Assembly: GCA_002839435.1 (NCBI GenBank)
Contig: PGYA01000020.1
Coordinates: 8,312-72,311, forward strand
Reading direction: 5' to 3'
Length of the DNA stretch: 64,000 nucleotides
Source of the DNA: Candidatus Riflebacteria bacterium HGW-Riflebacteria-2
GTDB taxonomy: Bacteria > Muiribacteriota > Ozemobacteria > Ozemobacterales > Ozemobacteraceae
Position numbers and translations under genes: made by a program. How positions within the stretch are numbered: the first letter of the stretch is position 1; every line of letters begins with the position of its first letter. The notes under the pieces were generated by a model, which was given only the letters and a program-made list of their open reading frames with translations, was not told the DNA's origin and searched no databases. Positions 1,439 to 58,325 of the stretch are shown in pieces.

Positions 1439-3400
1439 TTATGGTTGCAGCGTCAGTCGCGGCGCAACATATTCGTTGCCAGGTCTGACAGGTTGCGCCA
1501 TGCGGTTGGCTTCGCGGCGCACGATGTGCGGTGTGATAAAAATAATCAGTTCAGTTCTGACTTCCCGGGAAGTTTGCTTCTGAAAAAGCTTGCCGATGCC
1601 GGGCAGGTCGCCAAAAAACGGCACTTTGCTTACCGAGGTGCTTTTGTCGGTTTTGATCATACCACCAATGACTATTGTGTGGTTGTTTTTGCAGATAACT
1701 TGTGTCTTGGCGCTGCGATTGCTGAGGTTTGGCGTTGAATTGCCGCCGAGTTCGGTGAAGCCGAGCACGCTTGATATGGTTGGCTGTATGTCGAGAAACA
1801 CTTCGTCGTTGCCGGTAACCGACGGGGTTACGAGCAGTGTAATGTCGGCGTTGGCCTGCCCGATTGTGCTCGTGACATTGCCGGCCTGATCGGTAGTCGA
1901 ACCGGATACATAAGGAATCGCCTGTCCGACGGTAATATTGGCTTCGCGATTGTTGAGCGTAGTGATGACCGGGTTGCTCAGCACTTTTGCGAAGTTTTTT
2001 GTTTTGAGCATTGCCAGGAGCATGCGGAACTGGTTAACGTCGAGGCTGCCGAAGCGGAACACGCCGGTGCCGCCTGCGTTAGATTCTTCAGGTGAAATCG
2101 ACATGTCAAAAATGTTGTCTTCGGTTCCAGGTAATGGAATCGACTTCTGCCAGTTAACGCCGAGTCTCTCTTCTTCGTTTTTGTCGATTTCGTAGATGTG
2201 AGCGTCGATGGTTACCTGTATCGGCGGCATGTCGAGCTTTTCGATGAGTTCGCGGATGCGGTTGAGATTATTCTGGGTGTCAGTGATGATCATCATGTCC
2301 ATACGGCCCGAACCGCCGCCACCAGCTGCGCCGGCCTGCGACGCCTGGTTCGATGAGAACTCCTTGATCTGTACATCGGGTGAAAGCATTTTGATTGGGT
2401 CTGAAAGAGCTGATGCATCAGCATAGTTGAGATAGTAGACTTCGGTAACCGGGCGCGAGCTCACATCGACTGCGGTTTCCTTGATGTCGAGCTGGGGCAG
2501 CAGTTCGCTGACCTCTGCCAGTTTGGCTGCTGTATCGGTTATCATCAGCGAGTTCGTGCGCGTGTCGATTTCGCATTTGCCTCGCGGTGCCGGGCTGATC
2601 ATGCCGTCTATCGTCGTTTTCAGAGCGGTAAGCGATGCGTGCTGAATTCTGAATATACGGGTTATGGTCGGCGCGCTTTCTCTGGGGAAAATGCGCAGGA
2701 TCGAGCCTTCCCAGGCGAACGAAAGGTTGTAGGCATTTAACAGGGTGTTGATTGCCTCTTCAATTGTGACGTCGCTGAATAGTATTGTCACGGTGCCGGT
2801 GATGCCTTGACTGAGCATCAGGTTAACGTTGATAAGCTGCAGCAATGAGCGCAGCGCATCGGCTACGGGCGCTTCACGAAAATCGAGCGAAGTAATCTTG
2901 ATGTTTTTGTCGCGTGGCAGCTTGAGATAAGATTCCAGCTGCTGAGTCTTTGGGTCAGTTGCAGCTTCTTCTTCTGATGGCGATTGTAGGGAATTGGGCG
3001 TAGCACCGGTAACAGGTGCTTGTGGTGGTAGAAGCTGGTATCTCGGTTCAGGCGTCTGTTCTCTCAGCTGCCTGATCGTTTCGAGGACTTCAGGTGACAG
3101 TTTGTTCTCGTTTTCCTGCTGCTTTTCCGGGAGCCTTATGCGCGCTCCATTTCCCAGGTTGACCCAGCCCGGGCTTTGCTTGCCGGTTGGCTGGCTGTTT
3201 GTCAGATTTGGCCCGGATTCTCTGATAATCGGATAAAAAGAATTGTTCGGAGCAGGCTCGCGCGGGTGACTGATGGCGCCCCTGGTTGCGCTTCTGAGCG
3301 GTTGCCACTGCTTGGACTGGCTGTAAGCAGGTGCTATGCCGGCCAGACAGACGCTGCCCAGCAGAATATAGCGCAGAAAATTTTCCCGCCGCTTTGCCAA
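1439..3400 (-). CDS. pilQ: Secretin (PilQ/GspD family outer-membrane channel)
   Basis: 653 aa with signal peptide MAKRRENFLRYILLGSVCLAGIAPAYSQ. The C-terminal secretin core is NPVITTLNNREANITVGQAIPYVSGS ... VPFFGDLPGIGKLFQKQTSREVRTELIIFITPHIV. TTG start preceded by AGGAG. Confidence 0.9.
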   Translation of the reverse strand: MAKRRENFLRYILLGSVCLAGIAPAYSQSKQWQPLRSATRGAISHPREPAPNNSFYPIIRESGPNLTNSQPTGKQSPGWVNLGNGARIRLPEKQQENENKLSPEVLETIRQLREQTPEPRYQLLPPQAPVTGATPNSLQSPSEEEAATDPKTQQLESYLKLPRDKNIKITSLDFREAPVADALRSLLQLINVNLMLSQGITGTVTILFSDVTIEEAINTLLNAYNLSFAWEGSILRIFPRESAPTITRIFRIQHASLTALKTTIDGMISPAPRGKCEIDTRTNSLMITDTAAKLAEVSELLPQLDIKETAVDVSSRPVTEVYYLNYADASALSDPIKMLSPDVQIKEFSSNQASQAGAAGGGGSGRMDMMIITDTQNNLNRIRELIEKLDMPPIQVTIDAHIYEIDKNEEERLGVNWQKSIPLPGTEDNIFDMSISPEESNAGGTGVFRFGSLDVNQFRMLLAMLKTKNFAKVLSNPVITTLNNREANITVGQAIPYVSGSTTDQAGNVTSTIGQANADITLLVTPSVTGNDEVFLDIQPTISSVLGFTELGGNSTPNLSNRSAKTQVICKNNHTIVIGGMIKTDKSTSVSKVPFFGDLPGIGKLFQKQTSREVRTELIIFITPHIVRREANRMAQPVRPGNEYVAPRLTLQP

Positions 3401-3518
3401 TGTTTGCTCCTGAAACTTAACGGATCTGATAGTTATTATTCAAATCCATTATCGGCAGGTTCAGCGGTTTCATGAAGTAACAGTTATAATTGAATTATTG
3501 CAGTAGCCGATGGCCTGG

Positions 3519-4217
3519 TCAGTTTTTGTGATAACTGTCATCAACGGTATAAGAGCCGTCTTCGGCGATATTTACGTTGACGCCTCGCTTGGGAATCAGG
3601 AATGTATCCTTGCCACTTTCGAGAGATATTATCTCGGTTTTTATGTCGGCAATTTTTTTGTCGCCAAAGGCGTCGCCCTTGCGGTAAAGGCGCGAATCGA
3701 TAACAGCTACCAGTTCCTTACGGGTTTCTATCGTTGCAGTAAAGTTGGCCGCCAGTAATTGAACAGATTTCTTTTCGACAGGCATAGCGGCCATTTCTTC
3801 TTTTTTCTGGAGATCTTCGACCAGTTTTGCGTAAGGCGAACGTTCAAAAGGGTCGCGTTTCATTTTTTTAAGGGCCAGCATGATCGGGTCATCCAGCAAA
3901 GGGTTATCATCAGATGTTGCTGATGGCGTTTCTCCATCGGCTGGGGCATTGGCGTTTTCTGTTTCTCCACCTTCTGCTACATCTTCCGGGAGGTCTTCAG
4001 TTCCTTCCGTCCCTGCTGAATCTTCGCCGCCCACATCGGTCATATTTTCTCCGTCAGCGAGAGGTACCTGGTCATCCTGTAGCTGAAGATCATCCAGATT
4101 GAGGGCTACCCGTTGGCGAACCTGCTTCGACCCGGCTGGCGGACGGGTTTTGTGCCATTTTGCGCCCATGGCAACAGAAAGAACTATGAGGCTGAGGAAG
4201 AACAGTTTCTTGCCCAT
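3519..4217 (-). CDS. PilP-like pilus/secretion assembly protein with acidic linker
   Basis: 232 aa with an N-terminal membrane anchor and a long Asp/Glu-rich linker. The C-terminal segment ELVAVIDSRLYRKGDAFGDKKIADIKTEIISLESG resembles the PilP beta-sandwich pattern. Its start overlaps the upstream stop by 1 nt (TAATG). Confidence 0.5.
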   Translation of the reverse strand: MGKKLFFLSLIVLSVAMGAKWHKTRPPAGSKQVRQRVALNLDDLQLQDDQVPLADGENMTDVGGEDSAGTEGTEDLPEDVAEGGETENANAPADGETPSATSDDNPLLDDPIMLALKKMKRDPFERSPYAKLVEDLQKKEEMAAMPVEKKSVQLLAANFTATIETRKELVAVIDSRLYRKGDAFGDKKIADIKTEIISLESGKDTFLIPKRGVNVNIAEDGSYTVDDSYHKN

Positions 4218-4876
4218 TATTCCTCCACGAATCCGGGATCATCCGCAGATTCTTCTGGATTTCCTTCGCTTTCAGGCTGTGTCATTGACATCGCTATCGC
4301 ATCAGGGATCAGGATAGTTGTAGGGCTGAGCTCAACATCAAAGGTGCCGCTGGCATTTGGTGTCAGGTTTGGCATATTGAGAAAAGTGATTTTTTGTTCT
4401 TTTTCAACCAGCCTCATAAAAGTGGCAAGTTGCAGCAAATTGCCGCTGAAACCAAAGGTCACCGTGCATTTTTCTGCTTCTATATTCCCCATGGGTGTTG
4501 GCACCAGTGGCAAAGGCTTTACGCTTTTTATGGGAATGCCCGCCTGGGTAGCCAGTTCTCTGACCCGTCTGAGAAAGCTGGTCATTTCAGATTTTCGATA
4601 ACAAAGTTTGATGGCCTTGCCAAGCTGTGCTTTTTTATCTTCTATATCCAGGAGGATGTTTTCTCTGTTGTCTACTGCTGCCTGTACGTCGTTTATCTGA
4701 GATTCTATTGCTTTTGTTTTTCGGTCTTCTTTTTTGAGTTCGAGCACTTTTGGGGCATAAAGTCCCTTATAGCCTCCAAAAGCCAGGGCAGCAATAATCA
4801 CCAGCGGTTGCGCCGCCAGTTTTGGGTCTTCTTTGGCTTTCTTAAGCCAGTCTGTGATACTGAATTCTTCTGCCAT
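4217..4876 (-). CDS. pilO: PilO/GspM-like bitopic inner-membrane assembly protein
   Basis: 219 aa: short cytoplasmic N-terminus, one TM (LVIIAALAFGGY), a coiled-coil segment, then an alpha/beta domain. It sits between the PilM/N fusion and the PilP-like gene. Confidence 0.6.
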   Translation of the reverse strand: MAEEFSITDWLKKAKEDPKLAAQPLVIIAALAFGGYKGLYAPKVLELKKEDRKTKAIESQINDVQAAVDNRENILLDIEDKKAQLGKAIKLCYRKSEMTSFLRRVRELATQAGIPIKSVKPLPLVPTPMGNIEAEKCTVTFGFSGNLLQLATFMRLVEKEQKITFLNMPNLTPNASGTFDVELSPTTILIPDAIAMSMTQPESEGNPEESADDPGFVEE

Positions 4877-4889
4877 GGGTGATCCCTGT

Positions 4890-6764
4890 TTAGTACATTT
4901 CTTCTTCGGCTACTGGGGCGTCTGACAGGATTTCAGGTTCAGGTTCCAAGCCAGCTCGTTTTCTAAGCTCTACTGTATTAATCTTACCATTTAGTGCGAA
5001 TCTTATGAAGTATCTGGTATCGTCTATCGGCATTTCCTGAGTTGACTCAAGGGCTGGATCTTGAAAAACAGTAGACTTAGCCAGAATGTTGAGATACTCA
5101 AAGACGCTGTCAGAGTTGTCCGCAGTTCCCTGAATACGAAATGTCGGTGGCTGTGTTTGTGAATTGAAAGTGGCTCCGCTCAAAAATATTTGTGCGGGAG
5201 TTGTGCTGGCAAGTTCAAGAATGATAACAGAATTGACTATTCGCATGCGCTCAATTTCCAAGCCAAAATTTTGCATCGAGGTTAATTTTGTCTGCTCTTC
5301 GAGAACCAGGTTGATGTCTCCCTGAGAACCTCCCAATTCGCCAAGTTCTCTTTGCAACTTTTTCTGCTTACTCTTCTCATCGTTGACTTTTTGTCTGATT
5401 TTGAATACTGGATAAAGACCGATGAGAGCGATTATGGCCGCCAAGGCCCCCGCAAGTATGCGAAGTTTCTTTTCATCGAGTTCAAAAAGTTTTGCGGATA
5501 AGTTCCCACCAAACTTGGAGCTGACTCCAGAAAGGTTGATACTTTGGTTCTTTCTGTTGGGAAAGAGAATATCAATGAAGTTAATGATCTCCTTTTCTCC
5601 ATCGTAGAGAGCGACTCCCATGGTTGGGGCCAGACTCGCCGCCTCCAGTTCCCGCCTTTCCTCGTCATATTTAATTTCGCCGATTGTCATACGCGAAAAT
5701 GGTTGGGCTATAGAGGTAGATACTTCCAGGCTTTCCTCGATGAATTCTTTAAAATTGTTCATCGCGGCTGACCCGCCTGTAAGAATTATTTTGTCGAGAC
5801 CCGTCTCGCCAGATTGCGAAATGTAGAAACTTATAGACAGCTGAATGTGCTGGAAAATCTTTTCAACTGTCTCAAATATTTTTTGTGCGGCGAATTTCTC
5901 CGCACTCTTGAGTTCTTGTATCTCATCTGGCGGCATTACGCCAAGTTTGTGTTTGAGCTCGGTAGCTTCATTAAGGTGTTTGAACGTGATCTGCTGGCCA
6001 TCTACCTCTCCTCCCGCAAAGATTGCTTCAGTGATAGTAGCCCCTGCCATGTTAATGTCCCGGAAAAACTGGATCTTGCCGTTCTTGTATATCATTACAG
6101 ATGTGGTGGAGTTGCCGCAGTGAATTATTCCCACCTTTTTATCCCCGGACGCATAGGGCGCCATCTGTTTTTCAAGAGCTTTCTCAAGGGCTTGTGGCAG
6201 GGTAATTATTCCCTCGTTTGAAAGCCCGGCGCCTTTGAAGTTGAGATTTATGTAGTCAATAATGTCTTTCTGCAGGGCGGCAACCATGATTTGTGTAAGA
6301 GCTTTGTCGTCGCGCATGGTATCGCCCTGGACGTGGTAACCAAGGACGGCATTGCCCATTGAGAAAGGCATTTGCTTGTTCGCTTCGGCAGTTACAGCTT
6401 CAATAAGCTTGTCGGCTTCGACAACGGGTGGTATTTCAATGCAGCGGATGGTTACTTCCCGGTTAGAGGCGAAAGTGATGGCGCGTTTGGTTACGATTTC
6501 GTTGTCATAGAGCAATTCGGTAATGTGGGTGGTAAGGAACTGGCGCAGCTCTTTCAGGCAGTGCTCGCGCACGTCATCCTTACTCATGGTTTCGCGCTTT
6601 TCGTCGTCCAGTTCGTGCTCGAATGGCGGAATGTTCATCTGGGCCAGCGTTTTGAGCACAAACCCGCCATTCTCGTTTTTCTGGGCGTAGGCAAACTTCA
6701 GAGAAAACGAGCCAATATCGACGGCGACAAATGATTCAAATGTTGTTTCTGTTGTTGTGGTCAT
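4890..6764 (-). CDS. pilM: PilM-PilN fusion (GspL-like architecture): actin-like ATPase domain + TM + periplasmic domain
   Basis: 624 aa. The N-terminal actin/FtsA-like fold has VAVDIGSFSLKFAY and IIHCGNSTTSV phosphate motifs. A TM (LAGALAAIIALIGLYPVF) follows at about residue 440, then a coiled coil and a PilN-like C-terminal domain. Confidence 0.8.
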   Translation of the reverse strand: MTTTTETTFESFVAVDIGSFSLKFAYAQKNENGGFVLKTLAQMNIPPFEHELDDEKRETMSKDDVREHCLKELRQFLTTHITELLYDNEIVTKRAITFASNREVTIRCIEIPPVVEADKLIEAVTAEANKQMPFSMGNAVLGYHVQGDTMRDDKALTQIMVAALQKDIIDYINLNFKGAGLSNEGIITLPQALEKALEKQMAPYASGDKKVGIIHCGNSTTSVMIYKNGKIQFFRDINMAGATITEAIFAGGEVDGQQITFKHLNEATELKHKLGVMPPDEIQELKSAEKFAAQKIFETVEKIFQHIQLSISFYISQSGETGLDKIILTGGSAAMNNFKEFIEESLEVSTSIAQPFSRMTIGEIKYDEERRELEAASLAPTMGVALYDGEKEIINFIDILFPNRKNQSINLSGVSSKFGGNLSAKLFELDEKKLRILAGALAAIIALIGLYPVFKIRQKVNDEKSKQKKLQRELGELGGSQGDINLVLEEQTKLTSMQNFGLEIERMRIVNSVIILELASTTPAQIFLSGATFNSQTQPPTFRIQGTADNSDSVFEYLNILAKSTVFQDPALESTQEMPIDDTRYFIRFALNGKINTVELRKRAGLEPEPEILSDAPVAEEEMY

Positions 6765-6932: not shown

Positions 6933-7505
6933 TTATTGGTAGGCTCTTCTGGCGCGTGTGATAGGCACAAGAATATCGTCAACATCTGCTTCTTCTTTCA
7001 GTTCATCGCTCATATTGATGATGTTGTTGACACCTTCTGCGAAACCGTTTACTCCTCTAGATCTCAGATAAAGGGTGTTGCCTTCGGCAAAATATTCGAG
7101 AGCAGTTCCCCAGGAGTCATACATGAAATCTTCAGGGTTGGCATCCATGTAGGGGCCCTTATAGCGTCTGTCGTAGCCACCAAGGGTCATATAGTTATGG
7201 TCATTTACCAGTACGTTATTGACTGAGGTGGCAGAAAATACGATCTTGGCATTGGCCAGGTTGTTGTAATTAGCTTTTAGTGAAATGTTGAATACTGGTC
7301 CTCCTCCTACCGGGAATCTGCCGGCATCTCGCTGGAAGGAAAGGAGCGCGCTCTTAAGGGAAGAGAGATTGGCTTTGGTTGCCGATGATCTGCCCTGGTC
7401 CGTGATAGAGCCTATCATAGGCCCTGCTACTGACGCCAGAACTGCGATAACAATGATAACAACCATTATTTCCATCAGCGTAAAGCCTGAGCGTTGTGTC
7501 TTCAT
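6933..7505 (-). CDS. GspG-like major pseudopilin / type IV pilin
   Basis: 190 aa. Prepilin cleavage/methylation motif MKTQRSG|FTLMEIMVVIIVIAVLA with Glu at +5. GspG-like core (ATKANLSSLKSALLSFQRDAGRFP ... DSWGTALEY ... LRSRGVNG). Confidence 0.85.
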   Translation of the reverse strand: MKTQRSGFTLMEIMVVIIVIAVLASVAGPMIGSITDQGRSSATKANLSSLKSALLSFQRDAGRFPVGGGPVFNISLKANYNNLANAKIVFSATSVNNVLVNDHNYMTLGGYDRRYKGPYMDANPEDFMYDSWGTALEYFAEGNTLYLRSRGVNGFAEGVNNIINMSDELKEEADVDDILVPITRARRAYQ

Positions 7506-7536
7506 AAATCGGTACCTCCCGTATCAGTTACCTGCA

Positions 7537-7564
7537 ATATAGTGAAATAAATAAAGGTGTCAAG
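7537..7564 (-). promoter_or_regulatory. Putative sigma70-type promoter for the pseudopilin gene
   Basis: The minus strand reads TTGACA-16 nt-TATATT. GGGAGG follows about 10 nt upstream of the ATG at 7505. Pattern match only. Confidence 0.4.
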
Positions 7565-7651
7565 TCAGCAAAAAGAAACTAGATTATTATGTCAGCAGTA
7601 GTGTAGCATAAAGCGCTGCAGGAAATCTAACAAAATGTTACATAAGGTCAT

Positions 7652-9850
7652 ATGCGTCCAAAGTCTGTTGCATTTTTCTATATTGTACTTATATCGACAG
7701 TTATACTGTTCTGGTTGATAGCACATATACAATCGGCAGATTCTACGATTTTTGCAGGCGGTTATCTCCAGGAAGATCCTGACGCCCTATTGTTTGCGCG
7801 CCTCGTTGAACAGTCTATACTGCGTGGCGAAGTCATCACTAAGGATAATTATGGCTGTTATCCTTACGAGATAGACATGGGTTTTGCGCCTTTTTATCTG
7901 AGGTTCCACTTTTATCTTGCCGGCATAATCTATCAGATTTTTCCTGATTTGACTTTGGCCCCGCTTGAGATTCTTGGCTTCATTTCTCTTGTCTTTGCAT
8001 GGCTTCTAGCTCTGATGCTAATGTTTTCAGCCTGGTTTCTGACGAAGGATCTCAGGATTCTGTTTTTTGTTGGTGCTGGCCTGCTGCCTGGTTATTCTAC
8101 TGTGATGACAGCAAGATATATGCAGTTTGATTATGATTTTCTGAACTGCTTTCTAATCTGGTCATTTATACTGGCGTGTACGTTTAAAGTAAAGACTGGG
8201 CGAAGCATCTGGGATATCGTGGGGAGCCTCACCGCGACAATTTTTATTGGAACCTGGACCGGTACACCGCTTTTTTTCTTTATGATTACTCTTTATGGCT
8301 TTAAATTATGGTTGTTTGAAGATGAAGAGGCGTCTTTGTACAATAGTTTTGTATCTTCGAGCATGTTAGTTGGCGGGTTCGTAAATTTGTTTTTTGTTTT
8401 GAAAAGCGACCTGCTCTTTATTTCCATGAATAAATACAGCATCTTTCAGCCACTGTGCGTTATCATGGGAGGTCTGTTTTGCCGCTTTCTTATGGTTATG
8501 GCAGGCAAGATGTCCAAAAGAACCGCTCTTATGATTTTGGTCGGTGGGTTGCTTGTTCTGTTTGCAGCTTTCAATTTTCAGATCAGGGGTGCATTGGGGC
8601 TTTTGCTTAAGAACGATCCGATCCATAAATACATTGGCGAGCTCGCTCCCATACTGCCTTTGAACCGGGCCGCCATTGACAACTCTTTTGTCAATCGTCT
8701 TATGATATATTTCGGGTGGACTATTGTATTGTTTCCTCTATTTTTAATTTTTCCAAATCCGATGAAAAAATATAGAGGCAGTCGTATCGTTCTCGACTGG
8801 CTGGCAATAATGATTTTGCTGGCTTTCTATCAGACACGATTCCTACGGTGGGCGGGAATAGGAGTTGGCCTGTATGTCGGGTTGGTGCTTTTTTATCTAT
8901 GGCAGCTGGCACGTCAGAACATCGAAGATCCCAAATGGAAATTGAGGCTGGCAATAGCTTTTTGTTTAATGCTCACTTTGCAGTCTTTGCAGGATTTCTC
9001 CAGCGTTTCAGCGCAGGGAAATTTCAGCAGCAGGCAGGTAGATGTCTTGAACTGGATCATTAGAAATACACCTGTTACAAGTGGCTACAGCGATCATAGC
9101 AAGCCAGAATACAGTATTTTATCATATTGGGATGAGGGAAATGAGCTATCATTCTACACCAAACGACCTGTGTCCGTAGGCAATTCGCTTTGGGGCTTCA
9201 AAACAATGGTCGATATCTTTGCCTCTGAAACAGAGGAAGAGGCCTTGAGATTTTGCGAAGAGTATGGAGTTCGCTATGTTTTCATCTCCAACGCGCGGGA
9301 TTTTGAGGGAGACATCTGGGCGTATTGGGAGTATATGAAGGGGCAGCCTAAAAGGCCAGATTATGAAATGTTTTCTGGCGATCTCAATGTTTCTGTAGAT
9401 TACGAAAAATGGTTTTATCACTGGTTGCGAGATAACTGGGGCCTCTTCAGAAAGGGAAAATTCACCGCCTCGACAAGATTTCGTGTGGTTTACACCTCTA
9501 ATTTCAAGGATTTTGCACTGCCAGAATATGTTTTATATGAGAAAGTTGCAGGATGCAGAATAGAAATAAGAGCTGATGCCGGAACCAAGGCCCAGATATC
9601 CATTGGTATCATACTGGATGGCCATCAGTTTATTTACAAATCATCCAGAAATATACCGGCAGAGGGAAAGGTTGAATTTACTGTGCCTTACGCTTCATCA
9701 CACTTTGGCGGCAGGGTTAAGACTGAAGATTTCTACAAGATATCTTTCTGGCAGGATGGCAAAAAAATTCTGGCAAAATGTAACGTTTCTGAAAATGCTG
9801 TTACCTCTGGGGAGTTGCTGACGACAAAAGATTTGACGCTGATGCGGTAA
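7652..9850 (+). CDS. STT3/AglB-like oligosaccharyltransferase (GT-C fold), divergent catalytic motifs
   Basis: 732 aa with about 13 TM segments followed by a soluble domain. The first loop has EDPDALLFARLVEQ (DxD-type motif) and a second acidic motif FDYDF. SYWDEGNELSF sits where WWDYG is expected, followed by SETEEEALRFCEEYGVRYVFIS. The C-terminus VLYEKVAGCRIEI...VEFTVPYAS resembles archaeal AglB tails as I recall them. Confidence 0.65.
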   Translation: MRPKSVAFFYIVLISTVILFWLIAHIQSADSTIFAGGYLQEDPDALLFARLVEQSILRGEVITKDNYGCYPYEIDMGFAPFYLRFHFYLAGIIYQIFPDLTLAPLEILGFISLVFAWLLALMLMFSAWFLTKDLRILFFVGAGLLPGYSTVMTARYMQFDYDFLNCFLIWSFILACTFKVKTGRSIWDIVGSLTATIFIGTWTGTPLFFFMITLYGFKLWLFEDEEASLYNSFVSSSMLVGGFVNLFFVLKSDLLFISMNKYSIFQPLCVIMGGLFCRFLMVMAGKMSKRTALMILVGGLLVLFAAFNFQIRGALGLLLKNDPIHKYIGELAPILPLNRAAIDNSFVNRLMIYFGWTIVLFPLFLIFPNPMKKYRGSRIVLDWLAIMILLAFYQTRFLRWAGIGVGLYVGLVLFYLWQLARQNIEDPKWKLRLAIAFCLMLTLQSLQDFSSVSAQGNFSSRQVDVLNWIIRNTPVTSGYSDHSKPEYSILSYWDEGNELSFYTKRPVSVGNSLWGFKTMVDIFASETEEEALRFCEEYGVRYVFISNARDFEGDIWAYWEYMKGQPKRPDYEMFSGDLNVSVDYEKWFYHWLRDNWGLFRKGKFTASTRFRVVYTSNFKDFALPEYVLYEKVAGCRIEIRADAGTKAQISIGIILDGHQFIYKSSRNIPAEGKVEFTVPYASSHFGGRVKTEDFYKISFWQDGKKILAKCNVSENAVTSGELLTTKDLTLMR

Positions 9851-11086: not shown

Positions 11087-12100
11087 ATGCCAGTTGCCTC
11101 AATAATAATACTTAACTGGAACGGTAAACACCACCTGCCAGATTGCCTGGCCAGTCTGGAGCAACAGACTTATCGAGATTTTGAGTGTGTCTTGGTTGAC
11201 AATGGCTCCAGTGACGGTTCTGGCGACTACATCAGGCAATTTTACCCCTGGGTAAAACTAGTCTGTCTTGACAAAAACTCCGGTTTTGCTGCTGGCAACG
11301 TAATTGCACTATCTTACTGTCTTGGCAGCTATATTATCACTCTCAACAACGATACAATTTTAGAGCCTCAATGGCTGGAGGAAATTGTAAAAGTGGCTGA
11401 CGATAATCCTCTGGCGGGCATGATTGCTTCAAGAATCTGTTCTGCCAAGGATCATGATATCATCGACTCATTGGGAATAAAAATCTGTCTGGATGGCATG
11501 TCGAGAGGGGCGTTTCGAAATCAGAAATATTCCGCACTTAGAGAGATTCCATCGGAAATTCTTTGTCCATCAGCCTGTGCCGGTCTTTACCGGCGCGAAA
11601 TGATAAATCAGGTTGGCTTTTTTGATGAAAGCTTCTTTGCTTACTGTGAAGATACCGATCTTGGATTGCGGTGTCGTCGCGCTGGCTGGAAAGCTTTGCT
11701 TGCAGAAAAAGCAGTGGTTTACCACAAGTATTCAGCCTCATTCGGCGCATTTTCTCCTTTCAAGCTTTACTTAGTAGAAAGGAACCACTTCTGGACTTTG
11801 TTTAAGAACTTTCCGGCGATACTGGTCATACTTTTTCCAGTTCTGACGGCGTTCCGCTATCTGCTTCAGTTTTTATTGCTGCTCAAGAATGATGGTGTGG
11901 GTAGAAATTTTCGAGAGAACAGTTCACAGTGGAGTTGTCTTTTTGCATTCGCAAAAGGCTTGCTGCACGGACTGATTGGCATTTATACTATTTTTTCAGT
12001 TAAATCTGCCAGTAATTTCTGGCCAGATAAGGTGGATTTTGAGTTCATGAAACTACTTCTGGCTCATAAATTGAGTTTTAAAGAACTACTTGGGGAATAG
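11087..12100 (+). CDS. GT2 glycosyltransferase (rhamnosyl/galactosyl-transferase-like)
   Basis: 337 aa. Motifs ASIIILNWNGKHHLPDCLASLEQQTYRDFECVLVDNGSSDGS and FFAYCEDTDLGLR. Confidence 0.85.
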   Translation: MPVASIIILNWNGKHHLPDCLASLEQQTYRDFECVLVDNGSSDGSGDYIRQFYPWVKLVCLDKNSGFAAGNVIALSYCLGSYIITLNNDTILEPQWLEEIVKVADDNPLAGMIASRICSAKDHDIIDSLGIKICLDGMSRGAFRNQKYSALREIPSEILCPSACAGLYRREMINQVGFFDESFFAYCEDTDLGLRCRRAGWKALLAEKAVVYHKYSASFGAFSPFKLYLVERNHFWTLFKNFPAILVILFPVLTAFRYLLQFLLLLKNDGVGRNFRENSSQWSCLFAFAKGLLHGLIGIYTIFSVKSASNFWPDKVDFEFMKLLLAHKLSFKELLGE

Positions 12101-12127
12101 CTGGACAAGGCCTGTTAAAGAGTTTTT

Positions 12128-12745
12128 TTATGCCTGAAAACTCAGTTTGTATGCCGCGTCATTGACCAGCCACCTGCTCATGTATTTGGGAAATGGGTGA
12201 TACATGGCTTTTTGCAGATGCAAAGAGTTTGCAGATGCTAATTTCTTTATCAGATTACAATCAAAATAACAACGGTGGCTGGGATCATTTTTAAATGAAA
12301 TTCCGTCTGGAACTATTATTATTACCTTTCCTCCCGGTTTGAGCGTCGGTAGATATTTTTTGACAAATTCACACGCTTGCTGGAATTCCATGTGCTCAAG
12401 GATATGAGAGAATAACAGGGTGTCAAACCTTTGCAAGCTCTTATCAAAATCTTCATCAAACTCTTGCGATAAAAAGACCTTGAAGCCTCTTCGCCGGGCA
12501 TAAAAAATAAACTCGGGATTGTGGTCAATGCCGGTTGCGTCTGGTAAAAATGAGAGGTATCGTCCAGGCCCACAGCCAACATCGAGTGTTTTTCCCTTGC
12601 ACAGACATCGCGCAAAAAACTTGAACGGTATCTCAACTGGCGACAGAAAACGCCACCATTTGGCATATTTTTGGAGGTAGTAATCTGAATATTCTTTTGA
12701 GGCTGTGTCCATAATGTTGTTCTCAACCATAATCAGATTCAACAC
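12128..12745 (-). CDS. Class I SAM-dependent methyltransferase
   Basis: 205 aa. Motif I is TLDVGCGPGRY, and an acidic loop and FSHILEHM motif follow. The start is uncertain: 12745, 12730 or 12712 are all Met. Confidence 0.8.
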   Translation of the reverse strand: MLNLIMVENNIMDTASKEYSDYYLQKYAKWWRFLSPVEIPFKFFARCLCKGKTLDVGCGPGRYLSFLPDATGIDHNPEFIFYARRRGFKVFLSQEFDEDFDKSLQRFDTLLFSHILEHMEFQQACEFVKKYLPTLKPGGKVIIIVPDGISFKNDPSHRCYFDCNLIKKLASANSLHLQKAMYHPFPKYMSRWLVNDAAYKLSFQA

Positions 12746-14231
12746 TCCTCTCCTGGCTTTTTATCTGTGAGAGCTTTAATAGCTCAGATACTATTGGGGT
12801 TGGTTTGGCTTCGAGATAAATCTGGTAAGAAAATAGTCCCATGTTTATTCCTATAAGCTTTTCATTTATAGCAATAAGTATTTTGCTCAGAGCATTGCTC
12901 CCAATTGCTTTTGGAAAAGGTGCCGGGATGCCCTCAATTTTGGTGATCTCATATCCACATTGTTCAAACATTTTTTTAAAAGTATGAAAGGTAAAAAGTC
13001 GCTTGTGAGTTTTATCCAAAATACCCTGTTTTCCGTAATTAAAATTGTTTAGCAGTAGCTGTAACCTGAGAATGAAAAACCCAATATTGCCGGTTGTTGC
13101 TATGATCTGAGGGCGCTTAAGTCTGGTTTTAGCTCTGACCTCGTCCAAAAATCTTTCTGGGTTTGACAGATGCTCAAGAATATCCAGCATCAATATTGTT
13201 TCAAACTTATCCATGTCTGGTAACTGTTCAGGACTCTCAAGATCCGCTTTAATAAAGTTTATTTTGCCGGACTGGGGAGATGATAACTCATGGCAGTCAA
13301 TGCCATAGGCTTTTATTGATTTTTGTGAAATTAGAGCCTGCAGCATTAAGCCTTGACCGCAGCCCAGATCTAAGACTACGGCGTTGTCTGGTACATTCTT
13401 TATCGCTAGAGAATGAGAAGATGGATAGGGGAGCTTAAGTTCGTAAAAATGATTGCTGTTTCTGTCGAGGTCGTAATTCAGTTGATACGCCAGTGACATG
13501 TTATGCAATCTGAATAAAATGGTAGATTTTACCACATCAAATGCGTATTTAAGACCATTAACGTGGCATATCTCATTGCCGTAGTAGGTCGGTATGGGTA
13601 TTTCCTTGATGACAATTCGAGCTTGTATACATTGAATTATTATCTCAGTGTCGAAATGAAAATCATTGGTATTGCGCTCAAATGGTATTAATTTCAATGC
13701 CCTTGTAGAATAAGCCCGAAATCCAGAGTGAAATTCACTTAGAGACGTTTTAAGAAGCCGGTTTTGCAAAAAAGTTAGAATCTTGTTGCCAACAAATTTG
13801 TATAAAGGCATGCCGCCTTTCAAGGCACCATATCTGGTAAGCATGCGTGAGCCAAATACAACATCCGCCTCTGACTCAATTATTGGTGTCAAAATGTCAT
13901 CAATCATTTCTGGTGGATATTGCCCGTCACCATGTAGTAGCACAACTGAATCAAAGCCGTTATTGATTGCATAACGATACCCCAACTTCTGATTGCCGCC
14001 ATAGCCCTGATTTGAAGGATTGTAAAGAACTGTCAAATTGAGTTGCTTATTTTTCTGTTGAAACTCTTTTGCAATAAGAAAAGTATCATCTATCGAATCA
14101 TCATCTATAACCAGAATTTCGTAATCGTATTTATTTATAGACGCTGGTATTCTAGTGAATACGTCTACTAGAGATGATCTGGCGTTGTACGCAACTATAA
14201 AAATTAGAACTTTATGTTTATTCTTTGCCAT
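12723..14231 (-). CDS. Bifunctional GT2 (DPM1-like) glycosyltransferase / class I methyltransferase fusion
   Basis: N-terminal half: VLIFIVAYNARSS, VIDDDSIDDT, LLHGDGQYPPE. C-terminal half: VLDLGCGQG, MLDILEHL. I prefer the start at 14231 (MAKNKHKVLIF), which matches the paralogue 58326..59861. The track ORF extends to 14267. Confidence 0.85.
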   Translation of the reverse strand: MAKNKHKVLIFIVAYNARSSLVDVFTRIPASINKYDYEILVIDDDSIDDTFLIAKEFQQKNKQLNLTVLYNPSNQGYGGNQKLGYRYAINNGFDSVVLLHGDGQYPPEMIDDILTPIIESEADVVFGSRMLTRYGALKGGMPLYKFVGNKILTFLQNRLLKTSLSEFHSGFRAYSTRALKLIPFERNTNDFHFDTEIIIQCIQARIVIKEIPIPTYYGNEICHVNGLKYAFDVVKSTILFRLHNMSLAYQLNYDLDRNSNHFYELKLPYPSSHSLAIKNVPDNAVVLDLGCGQGLMLQALISQKSIKAYGIDCHELSSPQSGKINFIKADLESPEQLPDMDKFETILMLDILEHLSNPERFLDEVRAKTRLKRPQIIATTGNIGFFILRLQLLLNNFNYGKQGILDKTHKRLFTFHTFKKMFEQCGYEITKIEGIPAPFPKAIGSNALSKILIAINEKLIGINMGLFSYQIYLEAKPTPIVSELLKLSQIKSQERSVESDYG

Positions 14232-15489
14232 TTTGATCCACAATGCCGATAAATTTTTGCCGCTCACTCAAGAAAATCTGGATTGCCCAGAGAAATATAA
14301 ACAGCCACAATAAAAGAGCAAGAAACTCAGGCCACCCATGCCAAACTCCCATTGAATCAGAGTCGGCGTAATGCCATGGTGTCCCCCCACACCAGAATGT
14401 ATAGACCAGGAACAGGAATAAGCCGCCTGTAATGTTTATGAACAACGCCCCTCTCAACCCCAGCAATATGCCGGGTACAACCATCCAGGCGAGATATTGA
14501 ACCCCAAAACCCGGTGTAAATACGAAAAAAAGCATAAATGTCCAGCTAAGAGCAAAGAGAAAGTCATTCCCTTTTTTCTGTTCTAGTTGACGACCTTCTT
14601 GAAAAAAGGTGCTTTCCCTGTTTCCTGAATGATGTAGCGACAGTCTATAAGCAGAAACAACAATGGTCAGAAATATCAATAATTTTCCGACAGGTAGGTA
14701 TTTGGCAACGATTTCAGGGCCAAAATGAAAGCTCAACACCTGGCTTATGCCCCAGATGCCTTGCAAACCTCCATAACTGAAGATATTGCGGTAGACACAC
14801 GCAAAATTGTTAGCCAGATGATAAGCAAAGCCAGCTGCGAAAGCAAACATAAGAATGCCGCAGAATTGCAGTTTTTTCTTGCGGCTTTCAATAAAAAAGA
14901 AAAAAACTGGTATGGTGATTAAAGGGACTATTTTTATATTAATTGCCAGGCCAAGACTGAGTGCGGATAAAGAAAGGGAGTTTCTTAAAAAAAAGTAAGC
15001 AGCGAGTAAAATCAGAAATAGGAATACAGGGTCGGTGTTACCGTGAAAGCCGCTTATAAATATCATTATCGGGCTTAAGGCAAACAGTAGGGCTGAATAA
15101 AATGCTTTTTGTGATTCTTGATAAGTTTTAAGCAGGCGGTAAATCAAAATAAAGCTGCCAATGTCTGCTATAATTGCCGGGAGTCTCATCAAGAAAGGAA
15201 ATCCATTATAGAAATAATGCTGGAGTTTGGCACATAATTCCAGAAATAAGCTCATCAACGGAGGGTGATTGTAATACCAGATATCTCTGTAAATATTAAC
15301 AGAGCCATGCTTGACAATATAGCGCATGAATGTGTGCCAGTAATAAACGTCGTTGGTTCCTATTGTTGTTAGAGCGTAAAAGAGTTTGATCGCGGTGCCG
15401 GCTAACAAGGCTAAACATAGTATGGGCAAATGATTGCGCTCTATTTTCTGCCATATTCTTCTGGTTAGAGATTGTTTAATTTCTGACAT
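14218..15489 (-). CDS. GT-C-type integral membrane glycosyltransferase (DUF2029/GT87-like), paralogue A
   Basis: 423 aa with about 11 TM segments. The conserved loop TIGTNDVYYWHTFMRYIVKHGSVNIYRDIWYYNHPPLMS is shared with 55436..56686. The family assignment is tentative. Confidence 0.6.
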   Translation of the reverse strand: MSEIKQSLTRRIWQKIERNHLPILCLALLAGTAIKLFYALTTIGTNDVYYWHTFMRYIVKHGSVNIYRDIWYYNHPPLMSLFLELCAKLQHYFYNGFPFLMRLPAIIADIGSFILIYRLLKTYQESQKAFYSALLFALSPIMIFISGFHGNTDPVFLFLILLAAYFFLRNSLSLSALSLGLAINIKIVPLITIPVFFFFIESRKKKLQFCGILMFAFAAGFAYHLANNFACVYRNIFSYGGLQGIWGISQVLSFHFGPEIVAKYLPVGKLLIFLTIVVSAYRLSLHHSGNRESTFFQEGRQLEQKKGNDFLFALSWTFMLFFVFTPGFGVQYLAWMVVPGILLGLRGALFINITGGLFLFLVYTFWCGGTPWHYADSDSMGVWHGWPEFLALLLWLFIFLWAIQIFLSERQKFIGIVDQNGKE

Positions 15490-15560
15490 CTGGTTTCTGA
15501 ATTGTTTTGTGGAAGAACCAGGAACTGGCTCCGGTAATGGGAAAGCAGCTATTGTAAGAT

Positions 15561-16964
15561 TTACTCATGGTTGTCTGTGATATCAGCAGATTTTGGAGCC
15601 AGCAAAAAAAATGTGAATATTGCTGCAGGCCAGAGCTGAAGGAATAGGCGATTGCTGGATGAGTTGAGGTGCCATGTCAGTTCGTGAGGTGACGCCATGT
15701 AAGCTATTACATAACCACCTAACATCGTCAGAAGAACAGCAGGAAACAGCCAGTTCTCTGTTGATTTCAGCTTAACACCGGCCCAAAGAAGATAGGCGAA
15801 CATAATCGGGATGGGGTTGAAAAATCCTTTTGACATCTGGTTCCACAGCCCGAAATTTGTAGCGCTGACTACCATGTGTTTTAAAATGATCGATAGTCTT
15901 TCTAAGTCAACCATCTGCGAGAGAATTCCGGGGCTAAGCTCTTTGGTAATGTAGTTCGCAGGTGCTAGTGACAATTTAAAAACAGCAACAGGAATCATCA
16001 TGAGAAGCAATCCGAAGACAAAGCCGCCGACTGAATGAGATGCTGGAGACCTCGTTCTTGTTTTTAAGGCAAGAATTATTACAACCAACAACATGACGAC
16101 AGAGAATAGTAATCCCTCATTTTTAGTCCAGGCAGCAAATCCCGCATTCATGCCGGCAAAAATCATAAGACTGGTGGAAGGCTGTCGCAGATTAATTGCT
16201 ATCAGCAAGAAAGTGGCAAGAAAGAAAAAGGCTAAAGGTAAATCGGCATACTGGCTGGCAGACATTTGGAGAAAATAGGGGGTGCTGGCCAGTGTTGCAG
16301 CTGCCAGGAATGCTGCAATGCCTCCCCGTGTTGCAAAAACGCCATTGAACAACATCAGAAAAACTAGTGCGGAAAAGATAATACTGGTTGCAATTTGAGA
16401 GGTCAGTGTTTCCTGGCGTGCATAGATCCAGCCTCGAACAACCGTGAGGGGGATAAGCAATGGATAGTCCGGGTGAGAAAATGGCATTTTATCTGAGAAG
16501 GCAGTCTTCCAGTTCTCGCCAGCTCGAAAAATAAACCGTGCGCGTACATTCCAGATAGACCAGGCATCCCAGTTGCCATGAGGTGTGTGCAGAGATATCT
16601 GCAGTATGGATAATGTAAGCAGCAAGAACAATGCTCCGAAGAAAAAGTATATTGTCCTTTTGTCGCAGAAATTATCAGATTCTCTCTCTAATTTAGCTTC
16701 AGACAAGGCTTTGACTCGTTTGGGGAGAAAGAAGGCTATGAGGCCTGCTAACAATTCAAAAACAGTATAATATTCGGTATTTCCATCGAAAATAAGCAGC
16801 CAGAAGAAAAGTAAAACACTTGTAATGGCAAGGCCTGAGCCTAATGATAATGCCAGACGCATGAGCTTGAAACTGTTTAATTGAAAGGAATTCAACCGGG
16901 ACGTAATGCTGTTGCCGATTGCCCAGGCAGGTAGCAAGCTGATTAGGGTGTAGAAGATAGTCAT
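15561..16964 (-). CDS. GT-C-type integral membrane protein (ArnT/PMT-like)
   Basis: 467 aa and polytopic. Contains the HGNWDAWSIWNVRARFIF loop. It lies in the operon with other glycosylation genes. Confidence 0.55.
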   Translation of the reverse strand: MTIFYTLISLLPAWAIGNSITSRLNSFQLNSFKLMRLALSLGSGLAITSVLLFFWLLIFDGNTEYYTVFELLAGLIAFFLPKRVKALSEAKLERESDNFCDKRTIYFFFGALFLLLTLSILQISLHTPHGNWDAWSIWNVRARFIFRAGENWKTAFSDKMPFSHPDYPLLIPLTVVRGWIYARQETLTSQIATSIIFSALVFLMLFNGVFATRGGIAAFLAAATLASTPYFLQMSASQYADLPLAFFFLATFLLIAINLRQPSTSLMIFAGMNAGFAAWTKNEGLLFSVVMLLVVIILALKTRTRSPASHSVGGFVFGLLLMMIPVAVFKLSLAPANYITKELSPGILSQMVDLERLSIILKHMVVSATNFGLWNQMSKGFFNPIPIMFAYLLWAGVKLKSTENWLFPAVLLTMLGGYVIAYMASPHELTWHLNSSSNRLFLQLWPAAIFTFFLLAPKSADITDNHE

Positions 16965-17371
16965 TATTGCCTTTTTATAAGGCAGACGCCTTGAGAGAAT
17001 TGCTGAGAAACTATTGCATTATGTTCGTTGCAGAATTCCTGCAGTCGAACCTCTGAAAAAAAGTCTCCGATTAGATATTCCGGCTCTATCGAATCTTCTA
17101 TGATTACAGGGGATAATACATACTGCGCCAGGAGATAATATGCTGCCTTGCCATTGTGAGCAAATACGTCTGATGCATAGCCGATAGGGGTGTTGTTGGG
17201 CAAAACATCTTTGAGAATTTGCATTCTCATTTGATACTTCTGTACCGAACATGGCTCAAATTGCCCGGGCCATCCCATGGGAATGCTGGTTATCATAGTC
17301 CAGAGAGACAAAAGAAAAGCGCTCATTATCGCTGCTTTATGTCTGAAGGTCATTGCGAACTCCAAGTTCAA
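16964..17371 (-). CDS. Hypothetical exported/anchored protein
   Basis: 135 aa with hydrophobic N-terminus AAIMSAFLLSLWTMITSI. Its stop overlaps the next start. No recognisable family. The true start may be Met7. Confidence 0.4.
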   Translation of the reverse strand: MNLEFAMTFRHKAAIMSAFLLSLWTMITSIPMGWPGQFEPCSVQKYQMRMQILKDVLPNNTPIGYASDVFAHNGKAAYYLLAQYVLSPVIIEDSIEPEYLIGDFFSEVRLQEFCNEHNAIVSQQFSQGVCLIKRQ

Positions 17372-17551
17372 GACTAACGCTATTTTTTACGATCATGTGC
17401 TGATTATTTTACTCTTGCGGTCGTAGAAGTCCAGCGACTTTGGTCGGATGAACCATGCTTAACCTCTCGCAAAAACCTTTCCAAACTGCCTTTCCATCTT
17501 ATCTTACGATCTTAACCCATATTCTATTATTTTGTCGAGACACCAGTTCTG

Positions 17552-32385: not shown

Positions 32386-32403
32386 ATAATCTCTCCGCGC
32401 AAT

Positions 32404-33990: not shown

Positions 33991-34036
33991 CGCAATTCTG
34001 CCCCTTTATGTTAATATAATGCGAGAGATGAGATAG

Positions 34037-53699: not shown

Positions 53700-53846
53700 C
53701 GAAACGTCCCGGTATTTTCTCAGAGAATTTTACCAGAAACAGAGTGCGGTTTAAATATTTCCTGCTTCATCACTTATCGGCTTGACCAATTTTCTCAGAC
53801 CACCGCTCTTAACCGATTTAATATGCTCACAAACACTTGTGTTGCA

Positions 53847-55373: not shown

Positions 55374-55435
55374 AGGAACTGAAAAGTAATATTAATTTTT
55401 CATCCATTTGGTGGTAATTATATATCTTTCTATGA

Positions 55436-58274: not shown

Positions 58275-58325
58275 ACATTGGAGTGGTCAAATCTCTAGAG
58301 ACACGGCAGCTATGAATCTTCATGC

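Follow-up and report, generated by a model that had tools for sequence, protein, structure and literature searches.

A pilin-adjacent homologue of the archaeal oligosaccharyltransferase AglB in Candidatus Riflebacteria, with conserved predicted catalytic residues and an apparently degenerate Ser/Thr(+2) pocket

Introduction

N-glycosylation that depends on an oligosaccharyltransferase (OST) has been characterised in bacteria essentially with PglB of the Campylobacterota and of a few deep-sea or Desulfovibrio-type bacteria (PMC8342417). Among the archaeal enzymes, AglB of Archaeoglobus fulgidus (AfAglB) provides the point of comparison for what follows. It uses a monophosphate lipid-linked oligosaccharide; its residues Asp47, Asp161 and His163 coordinate the metal, Asp47 also activating the acceptor amide; Glu360 of the TIXE motif takes part in catalysis and holds the backbone of the sequon; Arg426 is located close to the phosphate site, while the peptide site has Asp552, Gln571 and Lys618 in its vicinity (PMC8342417). 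Two further signatures have been defined in this family of enzymes, both carried by a kinked helix: the DK motif, which reads DxxKxxx[MI] or takes a variant form, E<>K, and the MI motif, MxxIxxx[IVW] (PMC3703281). We consider here the open reading frame (ORF) located at positions 7652-9850 of a stretch of 64,000 nucleotides from Candidatus Riflebacteria bacterium HGW-Riflebacteria-2 (assembly GCA_002839435.1, contig PGYA01000020.1, positions 8,312 to 72,311), the whole of which is termed the window. A first-pass annotation, made from the letters of the window, had seen in this ORF an STT3/AglB-like OST with a degenerate WWDYG motif. We find that its product is a homologue of archaeal AglB, that its gene adjoins a type IV pilin gene in all 13 loci with enough of the relevant flank, and that, as far as alignment can tell, the catalytic residues are retained in the family and the pocket expected to read the Ser or Thr at position +2 of the acceptor is degenerate.

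A homologue of archaeal AglB

The ORF, of 732 codons, was found exactly where the first-pass annotation had placed it. Full-length homologues of its product were recovered at E = 0 to 1e-168, hence it is not a chance ORF, and 1647 representative relatives were collected at E <= 1e-3. The protein comprises a 13-helix membrane domain (about residues 1-445), the AglB central core and a C-terminal, beta-rich AglB_L1 peripheral domain. The earlier estimate of some 13 transmembrane helices agrees with the AlphaFold model, which displays 13 long helices before residue 445, and with collinearity with the 13-helix membrane domain of AfAglB; a crude hydropathy scan of the protein alone resolved about 10 segments. 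The stretches that had been quoted as diagnostic are all in place, EDPDALLFAR from residue 41, FDYDF from residue 159, SYWDEGNELSF from residue 491, SETEEEALRFCEEYGVRYVFIS from residue 525, VLYEKVAGCRIEI from residue 627 and VEFTVPYAS from residue 674. The gene and its two AglB-specific domains are as follows:

7652..9850, plus strand: AglB-type (GT66-like) OST homologue, 732 aa, ORF with an ATG start (Pfam, TIGR04154, hhalign, Foldseek)
9086..9289, plus strand: AglB central-core domain, residues 479-546 (PF22627 at 30.7 bits, threshold 27; PDB 3vgp, 3vu0)
9551..9817, plus strand: AglB_L1 peripheral beta domain, residues 634-722 (PF18079 at 32.7 bits, threshold 23.6)

The product of this ORF is homologous to archaeal AglB, and the STT3/AglB-like identity first put forward holds in profile searches. 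Beside the two Pfam domains just listed, which are present in 29 of the 30 (PF22627) and in all 30 (PF18079) members of a bridging alignment that includes canonical AglBs (A2, 30 sequences), the model of the archaeosortase A system-associated OST, TIGR04154, covers residues 12-573 at E 2.2e-31. With 109.1 bits against a curated subfamily cutoff of 450 bits, the protein is, on sequence comparison, homologous to that subfamily but outside it. The AglB_L1 domain aligns with residues 766-868 of AfAglB-L, and its beta strands are modelled with a predicted local distance difference test score (pLDDT) of about 90. The C-terminal domains of A. fulgidus AglB-S1 and AglB-S2 (3VGP, 3VU0) were matched at E 1e-9, and at 1e-16 when the family profile was used; they were the sole PDB matches of the profile built from Riflebacteria only. 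There, SYWDEGN of the window protein faces SWWDYGN of A. fulgidus AglB-S in a gapless alignment, so that the register of the motif is secure. The bridging profile A2 extended the match in the PDB to full-length AfAglB-L (5e-113), to human STT3A (3e-37) and to Campylobacter lari PglB (6e-7). Because this profile contains canonical AglBs, the Riflebacteria-only alignment (A1) was compared separately with a canonical AglB set headed by AfAglB-L (A3), and hhalign aligned the two with a probability of 100% and an E-value of 5.7e-48, over 662 columns spanning residues 41-730.

The fold speaks in the same way. The AlphaFold model is of moderate quality (pLDDT 74.8, predicted template-modelling score 0.69), and its best match in Foldseek is AfAglB-L (E 1.5e-19, template-modelling (TM) score 0.61-0.63), followed by eukaryotic STT3 (1e-9 to 1e-6), DPY19 (3e-7) and PglB (4e-4), the top 21 matches all being OSTs or DPY19. 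Other GT-C folds, those of the ArnT, PMT and Emb types included, come far behind, ALG9 with E 3e-3, Emb and PMT4 with E of at least 1.5e-2, with TM scores of at most 0.32 throughout; a Pfam scan of the protein yielded no match to the other GT-C clades (ArnT, PMT, ALG, Emb, YfhO). We are thus dealing with the fold of an OST and not with that of another clade of GT-C enzymes, an issue that the first-pass annotation had left undecided; neither of the outcomes that it had named as fatal to its reading, the lack of a significant STT3/AglB/PglB profile match or the fold of another GT-C clade, was observed. Its impression that the protein was closer to AglB than to PglB is borne out both by Foldseek and by the bridging profile, in view of the values given above.

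Catalytic residues and acceptor pocket

Conservation was counted over 51 representatives of the family, which score at least 260 bits and have as little as about 21% identity to the window protein; residues were mapped onto AfAglB-L from the bridging-profile and hhalign alignments. This places the following motifs on the gene:

7775..7783, plus strand: first acidic DXD-type motif, D42-P43-D44, with D44 facing AfAglB Asp47 (D in 42 of 42 representatives covering it)
8129..8137, plus strand: second DXD-type motif, D160-Y161-D162, facing AfAglB Asp161-His162-His163
8630..8641, plus strand: TIxE-type motif of external loop 5 (EL5), Y327-I-G-E330, with E330 facing AfAglB Glu360
8837..8839, plus strand: R396, facing AfAglB Arg426 near the donor phosphate (R in 49 of 49)
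9125..9139, plus strand: degenerate WWDYG, Y492-W493-D494-E495-G496, facing AfAglB W550-W551-D552-Y553-G554

The residues predicted to bind the metal, to take part in catalysis and to contact the phosphate appear strictly conserved, with an alternation of Asp and His at position 162. Beyond D44 and R396, D160 is an Asp in all 46 representatives that could be scored, and position 162, the counterpart of AfAglB His163, is His in 23 and Asp in 21 of these 46. The glutamate of EL5, E330, is found in 48 of 48, preceded in all of them by Ile or Val at position 328, and by Thr or Ser at position 327 in 41; the family form of this motif is [T/S]-I-x-E-L, where the window protein has Y-I-G-E. From these alignments we regard the protein as very probably a catalytically competent homologue of the AglB-type OSTs.

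The pocket for the side chain at position +2 presents a different picture. In canonical enzymes, the Trp-Trp-Asp of WWDYG forms the Ser/Thr(+2) pocket. The residue in place of the first Trp (W550 in AfAglB, position 492 here) is Phe in 23 representatives, Tyr in 21, His in 3 and another residue in 4, and is Trp in none of the 51; the second Trp, W493, and G496 are each retained in 50 of 51. The first-pass annotation had singled out two substitutions in this motif, W to Y and Y to E: loss of the first Trp is indeed family-defining, the change of Y to E is unimportant, since that position varies within the family. At L513, which faces Gln571 of AfAglB, we find Met (22), Leu (10), Gln (7), Ile (6), Phe (3), Val (2) and Thr (1), that is, a hydrophobic residue in 43 of the 51. 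Lys618, of the DK motif of AfAglB, falls opposite an alignment gap without conserved counterpart in the family, and D550, which faces Glu613 of this variant DK motif, is not conserved. No recognisable Lys or Ile signature of the DK or MI type was seen in the equivalent segment (about residues 547-563), where the model is moderate; such motifs may not be identifiable without a structure (PMC3703281). The segment K517-T-M-x-D-I522, which might be read as an MI motif (MxxI), was rejected, as it lies opposite residues 583-591 of AfAglB-L and the true DK/MI helix follows the VKYVV strand. Between the WWD-type motif and the next helix, the window protein reads GNSLWG and the family consensus NNAMWG, where AfAglB-L has ANPFQAG, so that a literal DGGK appears to be absent.

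Judged by alignment, the Ser/Thr(+2) pocket is degenerate, its first Trp and its Gln571 being changed and no Lys or Ile of a DK/MI motif being recognisable. A remodelled +2 pocket implies that recognition of the acceptor is probably relaxed, or unlike the strict N-X-S/T rule, and we are probably in the presence of an active N-OST with altered acceptor specificity.

Substitutions of this kind extend beyond the family. Many of the AglB-like proteins that fall below the family boundary (P0055-P0159) have x-W-[D/S/G]-x-G-H in place of WWDYG, which suggests that GT66 relatives not yet studied have widely lost the first Trp.

A pilin gene as the constant neighbour

Synteny was compared at eight loci of Riflebacteria genomes and at metagenome loci that carry the more divergent members, with 21-33% identity to the window protein and making up half of the family, a locus being termed informative when 1.5 kb or more of the flank in question was available; one of them, L018, was too short to be judged. 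All 13 informative loci have the OST gene beside a GspG-like pilin gene, and this adjacency is retained in members whose identity to the window protein is no more than 21-28%. It also outlives rearrangement. The divergent arrangement of the two genes seen in the window is kept in L010, L014 and L021; a same-strand order, with the pilin gene and its PilMN-PilO operon directly downstream of the OST gene, is found in L012 and L013; in L019 a different prepilin gene is found 1.2 kb downstream; and in L003 the island that normally accompanies the OST gene is reduced to that gene, which stands as the lone separator of the pilin and GspE genes. Over the eight genome loci, identity amounts to 38-43% for the OST and 41-52% for the pilin, against 55-97% for the flanking pilus and GspE/GspF genes: the OST and the pilin diverge faster than their surroundings.

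In the window, the pairing of the OST gene, head to head, with a gene for a GspG-like pseudopilin across a gap of 146 nt was correctly recognised at first pass. The genes of the filament cluster, all of them on the minus strand, and the intergenic region are the following:

1439-3400, minus strand: secretin (Pfam)
3519-4217, minus strand: protein of 232 aa without assignment, syntenic in the loci that have this flank
4217-4876, minus strand: PilO-like protein (Pfam)
4890-6764, minus strand: PilM-PilN fusion (Pfam)
6933..7505, minus strand: GspG-like type IV (pseudo)pilin precursor, 190 aa, MKTQRSG/FTLMEI... (Pfam N_methyl and T2SSG, above thresholds)
7506..7651, no strand: divergent intergenic region, 146 nt, with a sigma-70-like promoter match facing the pilin gene
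19052-20251, minus strand: GspF/PilC-type platform protein (Pfam)
20278-21960, minus strand: GspE/PilB-type ATPase with an MshEN domain (Pfam)

Downstream of the pilin gene, those for pilus assembly (1439..6764) are conserved and syntenic in all the loci that cover this flank, and the GspF and GspE genes, whose counterparts in the other loci are syntenic and show 73-97% identity, make the far boundary of what we shall call the glycan island. The whole is a single minus-strand type IV filament cluster, with GspF some 11 kb beyond the pilin gene and the island lodged between the two. The pilin gene is the sole prepilin gene in the window, a motif scan having returned one prepilin per locus; TIGR01710, the GspG model, matches the 60 N-terminal residues only. 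Within the gap, a promoter match oriented towards the pilin gene (TTGACA-16-TATATT, 7563..7536, minus strand) agrees with the consensus at 11 of 12 positions, as a consensus match only; the number of matches in the 146-nt region as a whole was not above that of shuffled sequence, and the scan of the gap gave no comparable match facing the OST gene.

Outside the N-terminal helix, a single Asn is invariant in the otherwise variable globular part of the pilin, in the context N-[V/I/T]-L, which reads ...SVNNVLVND... in the pilin of the window. It is present in 13 of 13 orthologues, the same column being recovered in L001-L004, L006-L008, L010, L012-L014 and L021. This N-x-L may be a non-canonical acceptor, or may simply be structural.

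A variable glycan island and its probable donor module

Between the OST gene and the GspF gene, the window holds these genes:

9853-10233, minus strand: DUF2304 small membrane protein (PF10066, E 2.5e-26)
10226-10966, minus strand: family 2 glycosyltransferase (GT2; PF00535; NCBIfam PpgS E 3e-31 and AglJ E 2e-24, both below the equivalog cutoffs)
11087-12100, plus strand: GT2 (Pfam)
12128-12745, minus strand: methyltransferase (Pfam)
12723-14267, minus strand: GT2-methyltransferase fusion (Pfam)
14218-15489, minus strand: PMT_2/GT87-like GT-C enzyme (Pfam)
15561-16964, minus strand: PMT_2/GT87-like GT-C enzyme (Pfam)
17552-18994, minus strand: B12-binding radical S-adenosylmethionine (SAM) enzyme (Pfam)

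The guanine-plus-cytosine (GC) content of this island, 40-44%, is to be compared with 46-52% in its flanks, and the content in genes of its larger part (11087..18994) differs between loci. GT2 genes do follow the OST gene, as the first-pass annotation had proposed for the supply of a lipid-linked donor, at 10226-10966 and 11087-12100, and a homologue of the first is located near the OST gene in 8 of the 11 loci with that flank. This first gene goes together with that of a DUF2304 protein. In the couples GacJ/GacI and Rv3632/PpgS, HexNAc-P-undecaprenol is made by the GT2 enzyme under stimulation by its DUF2304 partner, and is then used by a GT-C enzyme on the outer side of the membrane (bioRxiv 10.1101/180810). 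By analogy, the present pair is likely to be a polyprenyl-monophosphate-sugar synthase of the GacJ/GacI or Rv3632/PpgS type, acting as donor supplier. Pfam scans recognised no phosphoglycosyltransferase in the island. From the analogy with these systems and with AfAglB, itself a user of a monophosphate donor, we infer that the donor of the OST is likely to be monophosphate-linked.

Several observations on the island and its kin can be made beside this. Distant homologues of the B12-binding radical SAM enzyme (24-29% identity) recur in the variable cassettes of L002, L004, L005, L006, L010 and L021, which suggests a recurrent step of sugar modification. Consecutive genes overlap, the fusion gene (12723-14267) with the methyltransferase gene (12128-12745) by 23 nt (12723-12745), and the GT-C gene at 14218-15489 with the fusion gene by 50 nt, both values depending on predicted GTG starts. 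A second island of low GC content (35-39%), at 51990-59861 on the minus strand, holds a gene set paralogous to that of the OST-adjacent island: a GT2-methyltransferase fusion (58326-59861) of the same architecture as that at 12723-14267, PMT/PMT_2-like GT-C enzymes (55436-56686 and 56679-58274) and two large ORFs without Pfam match (51990-53699 and 53847-55373). A third patch of low GC content (37-40%), at 31438-35893, comprises a GT2 gene (31438-32385), a 528-aa ORF without Pfam match (32404-33990) and a gene for a membrane protein of the sulfatase family (PF00884, 34037-35893).

Distribution and origin

The close homologues of the OST (38-43% identity) all come from metagenome-assembled genomes of Candidatus Riflebacteria, an uncultivated phylum; among the more divergent members are those of other Ozemobacteraceae/Rifleibacteriota and of Ca. 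Ozemobacter sibiricus. Of the relatives that fall below the family boundary, those which bear a name and have a canonical SWWDYGN are Euryarchaeota (Methanomethylovorans, ANME-2, 'Euryarchaeota archaeon'). A few bacterial homologues of AglB have been found nested in a euryarchaeal clade, implying transfers from archaea to bacteria (Lombard 2016). Together with these named relatives, that phylogeny points to an ancestor of the Riflebacteria that probably acquired its OST from Euryarchaeota.

Elsewhere, a distant AglB-type homologue, P0013 (L023, 10001-12304), has an RWDYGH motif and matches PF02516, PF22627 and PF18079. It lies on a clearly bacterial contig, with genes for SurA, Amidase_3, FtsY, SMC and RadC, a GT2 gene nearby and no pilin gene nearby, so that AglB-type OST genes are present in other uncultured bacteria as well.

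Proposed mechanism and its alternatives

The following scenario may be proposed. The protein would be a catalytically competent, single-subunit N-OST of the AglB type (GT-C fold, GT66-like), which has become part of a type IV filament cluster of the pilus or type II secretion system class. At the cytoplasmic face of the membrane, the GT2 and DUF2304 pair would load a sugar onto undecaprenyl monophosphate, in the manner of GacI and GacJ, and the GT2, methyltransferase and GT-C enzymes of the variable island would modify or extend this lipid-linked sugar. After flipping, the OST would bind the polyprenyl-phosphate-linked glycan, with R396 near the phosphate and D44, D160 and D162 holding a divalent metal; D44 and E330 would activate the carboxamide of the acceptor Asn, the peptide lying extended against the TIxE-type EL5, and the glycan would be transferred on the periplasmic face. 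The main acceptor would most likely be the neighbouring GspG-like major pilin, mirroring the AglB-dependent N-glycosylation of archaeal pilins and archaellins. Finally, a +2 pocket with [F/Y]WD for WWD, Met or Leu for Gln571 and no Lys or Ile of the DK/MI type would make recognition relaxed, or different from N-X-S/T. On the strength of synteny, the pilin is probably a substrate of the enzyme. As to the chain as a whole, that is, a euryarchaeal-derived N-OST settled in a pilus locus, which reads position +2 in a relaxed or altered way and uses an undecaprenyl-phosphate-linked glycan, made by the adjacent genes, to modify the major pilin and possibly further proteins, it seems to us somewhat more credible than doubtful.

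A number of results weigh against this scenario. At the level of homology, Pfam STT3 (PF02516), which the first-pass annotation had proposed as the profile to search with alongside AglB and PglB models, does not match the protein at E <= 0.1, though the AglB-specific models do; and the family profile alone, searched against PDB sequences at E <= 1, reached neither full-length AfAglB-L, nor STT3, nor PglB. The missing PF02516 match was set aside as evidence against homology, since the fold search, hhalign, TIGR04154 and the models specific to AglB are concordant; PF02516 matches 14 of the 30 members of the bridging set. In the pocket, D494, the counterpart of Asp552, is an Asp in 45 of the 51 representatives and is replaced in the other 6, and the AlphaFold model is of low confidence around the YWDEG loop (pLDDT below 50 for residues 475-511). 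On the donor side, L003, L010 and L021 have no GT2/DUF2304 pair close to the OST gene. On the acceptor side, the globular parts of 13 pilin orthologues hold 22 N-X-S/T sequons where shuffling predicts 24.7 (P = 0.76), none of these sequons is conserved in position among the 13, and two of the 13 have no such sequon at all; with neither an excess of sequons nor a conserved one, a canonical pilin sequon is unsupported. Lastly, archaeal AglB and PglB act generally, on many targets, and adjacency to a pilin gene is no proof of specificity for pilin.

This last point leads to the most serious alternative, a general N-OST acting on many periplasmic or surface proteins, the pilin being at most one target, and its gene standing beside the pilin gene because of co-regulation with surface structures, or at a hot spot of insertion. 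Such an enzyme would have the same conserved catalytic machinery; it would fare well with the lack of any conserved or enriched pilin sequon and with the two orthologues devoid of N-X-S/T, with the broad spectrum of known AglB and PglB enzymes (PMC5131992), and with P0013, the distant bacterial homologue that has no pilin gene nearby. What it hardly explains, without a functional link, is an adjacency kept in 13 of 13 loci over deep divergence and through rearrangement, down to L003, where the OST gene stands alone between the pilin and GspE genes. We consider this account unlikely.

One may also ask whether the chemistry of the acceptor has changed, in a GT-C enzyme derived from an OST which would use an undecaprenyl-phosphate-linked monosaccharide to modify a non-canonical Asn (that of the pilin N-[VIT]-L, for example), another type of residue, or even an acceptor which is not a protein. 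There are precedents, GacL and Rv3779, which act on glycans, and DPY19, which acts on Trp and is found among the fold matches at E 3e-7. The features of the pocket lend themselves to this idea, with the first Trp of WWD lost in 51 of 51 representatives, the Gln571 equivalent hydrophobic in 43, D494 lost in 6 and no detectable Lys or Ile of the DK/MI type, and so do the invariant Asn of the 13 pilins and the fact that the known couples of DUF2304 and GT2 proteins feed GT-C enzymes that transfer single sugars (bioRxiv 10.1101/180810). However, the strict conservation of the amide-activating pair, D44 and E330, and of the T/S-I-x-E frame argues for an Asn in a peptide as acceptor, the AglB fold is matched some ten orders of magnitude better than DPY19, and the invariant N-x-L may be merely structural, which makes this alternative improbable. 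An inactive relic, functionless or kept for a structural or chaperone role in pilus biogenesis, would account for the degenerate WWDYG, the missing PF02516 match and a score far below the TIGR04154 cutoff, but is scarcely credible when the metal, catalytic and phosphate residues are invariant phylum-wide at 21-43% identity, a sign of purifying selection on catalysis, and when the gene occurs together with genes for glycan donors.

To return to N-glycosylation associated with the pilus, its most specific version would be a dedicated system, embedded in the pilus locus, in which the remodelled +2 pocket reads a non-canonical acceptor, with the pilin N-[V/I/T]-L as a candidate. At the present stage this version is highly speculative and, taken in full, quite improbable.

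Significance

Homology to OSTs is, by itself, not new, as one member of the family is already annotated, automatically, as 'Oligosaccharyl transferase ... Stt3'. In the searchable literature we found no paper that ties Riflebacteria to an OST or that describes a pilin-adjacent AglB homologue, nor did we find there the phylum-wide conservation, the constant adjacency to pilin within a type IV filament cluster, the combination of an intact core with a degenerate pocket, or the likely monophosphate donor module. The locus may thus represent an undescribed bacterial system of N-glycosylation linked to the pilus. If the enzyme is active, it would add an independent acquisition of N-glycosylation by bacteria from archaea, would provide a bacterial counterpart to the AglB-dependent glycosylation of archaeal pilins and archaellins, and would amount to a natural experiment on the Ser/Thr(+2) pocket, making the determinants of the sequon directly testable. 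If, moreover, the acceptor were non-canonical, we would have a third independently acquired lineage of bacterial N-OSTs, with a new sequon and a role restricted to a filament. For those involved in glycoengineering, such a family could yield a single-subunit OST with unusual specificity for its acceptor or for its undecaprenyl-phosphate-linked donor.

Comparison with known systems

The closest relative of known structure is AfAglB (AglB-L; 3WAJ, 3WAK, 5GMY, 7E9S). The two proteins have in common the 13-helix membrane domain, the central core and the AglB_L1 domain, collinear over 662 profile columns, and the residues D47, D161, H163, E360 and R426 of AfAglB are the same or conservatively replaced in the Riflebacteria OST. 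They differ in size, 732 aa against 868 aa for AfAglB-L, several insertions of the latter being absent, as well as in their host, here bacterial, and in the pilus-cluster setting of the gene. In the pocket, [F/Y]WDxGN stands where AfAglB and TIGR04154 have WWDYG[HN], Gln571 gives way to Met or Leu, and the variant DK motif (E613...K618) is without detectable counterpart. As regards function, type IV pilin-like subunits are among the glycoprotein targets of archaeal AglB, for example in Methanococcus maripaludis (PMC5131992, PMC4390842). The archaeal enzyme is general, is not encoded beside pilins and modifies canonical N-X-S/T sites, whereas the Riflebacteria OST is encoded beside a pilin that has no conserved sequon.

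PglB of Campylobacter (3RCE, 5OGL, 6GXC) is likewise a single-subunit bacterial OST with a GT-C fold that works in the periplasm, with acidic motifs in EL1 and EL2, a TIXE motif and a WWD-type motif. Its relationship is far looser (E 4e-4 in Foldseek, where AglB reaches 1e-19; a profile match in the PDB only through the bridging alignment, at 6e-7), and the Riflebacteria OST showed no identifiable MI motif. Its donor is a diphosphate, made by a pgl locus that includes a phosphoglycosyltransferase and has no link with a pilin gene, whereas no phosphoglycosyltransferase was recognised in the Riflebacteria island.

TfpO/PilO and PglL of Pseudomonas and Neisseria, and the arabinosylation that involves TfpW, are functional analogues, in which the glycosyltransferase gene lies beside, or is linked to, that of the major type IV pilin. 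TfpO/PilO and PglL draw on a lipid-linked glycan beside a variable glycan repertoire, as is proposed here for the Riflebacteria OST; their protein family, which is Wzy_C/O-antigen ligase-like, is unrelated, and the glycan is O-linked to Ser or Thr.

As for the supply of the donor, the GT2 and DUF2304 pair that adjoins the Riflebacteria OST is of the type found in the GacI/GacJ-GacL system of Streptococcus and in the PpgS/Rv3632-Rv3779 system of Mycobacterium. In those systems the GT-C partners, GacL and Rv3779, modify polysaccharides and are not homologues of OSTs, whereas the GT-C partner found in Riflebacteria is a homologue of AglB, with a predicted Asn-activating dyad that appears intact.

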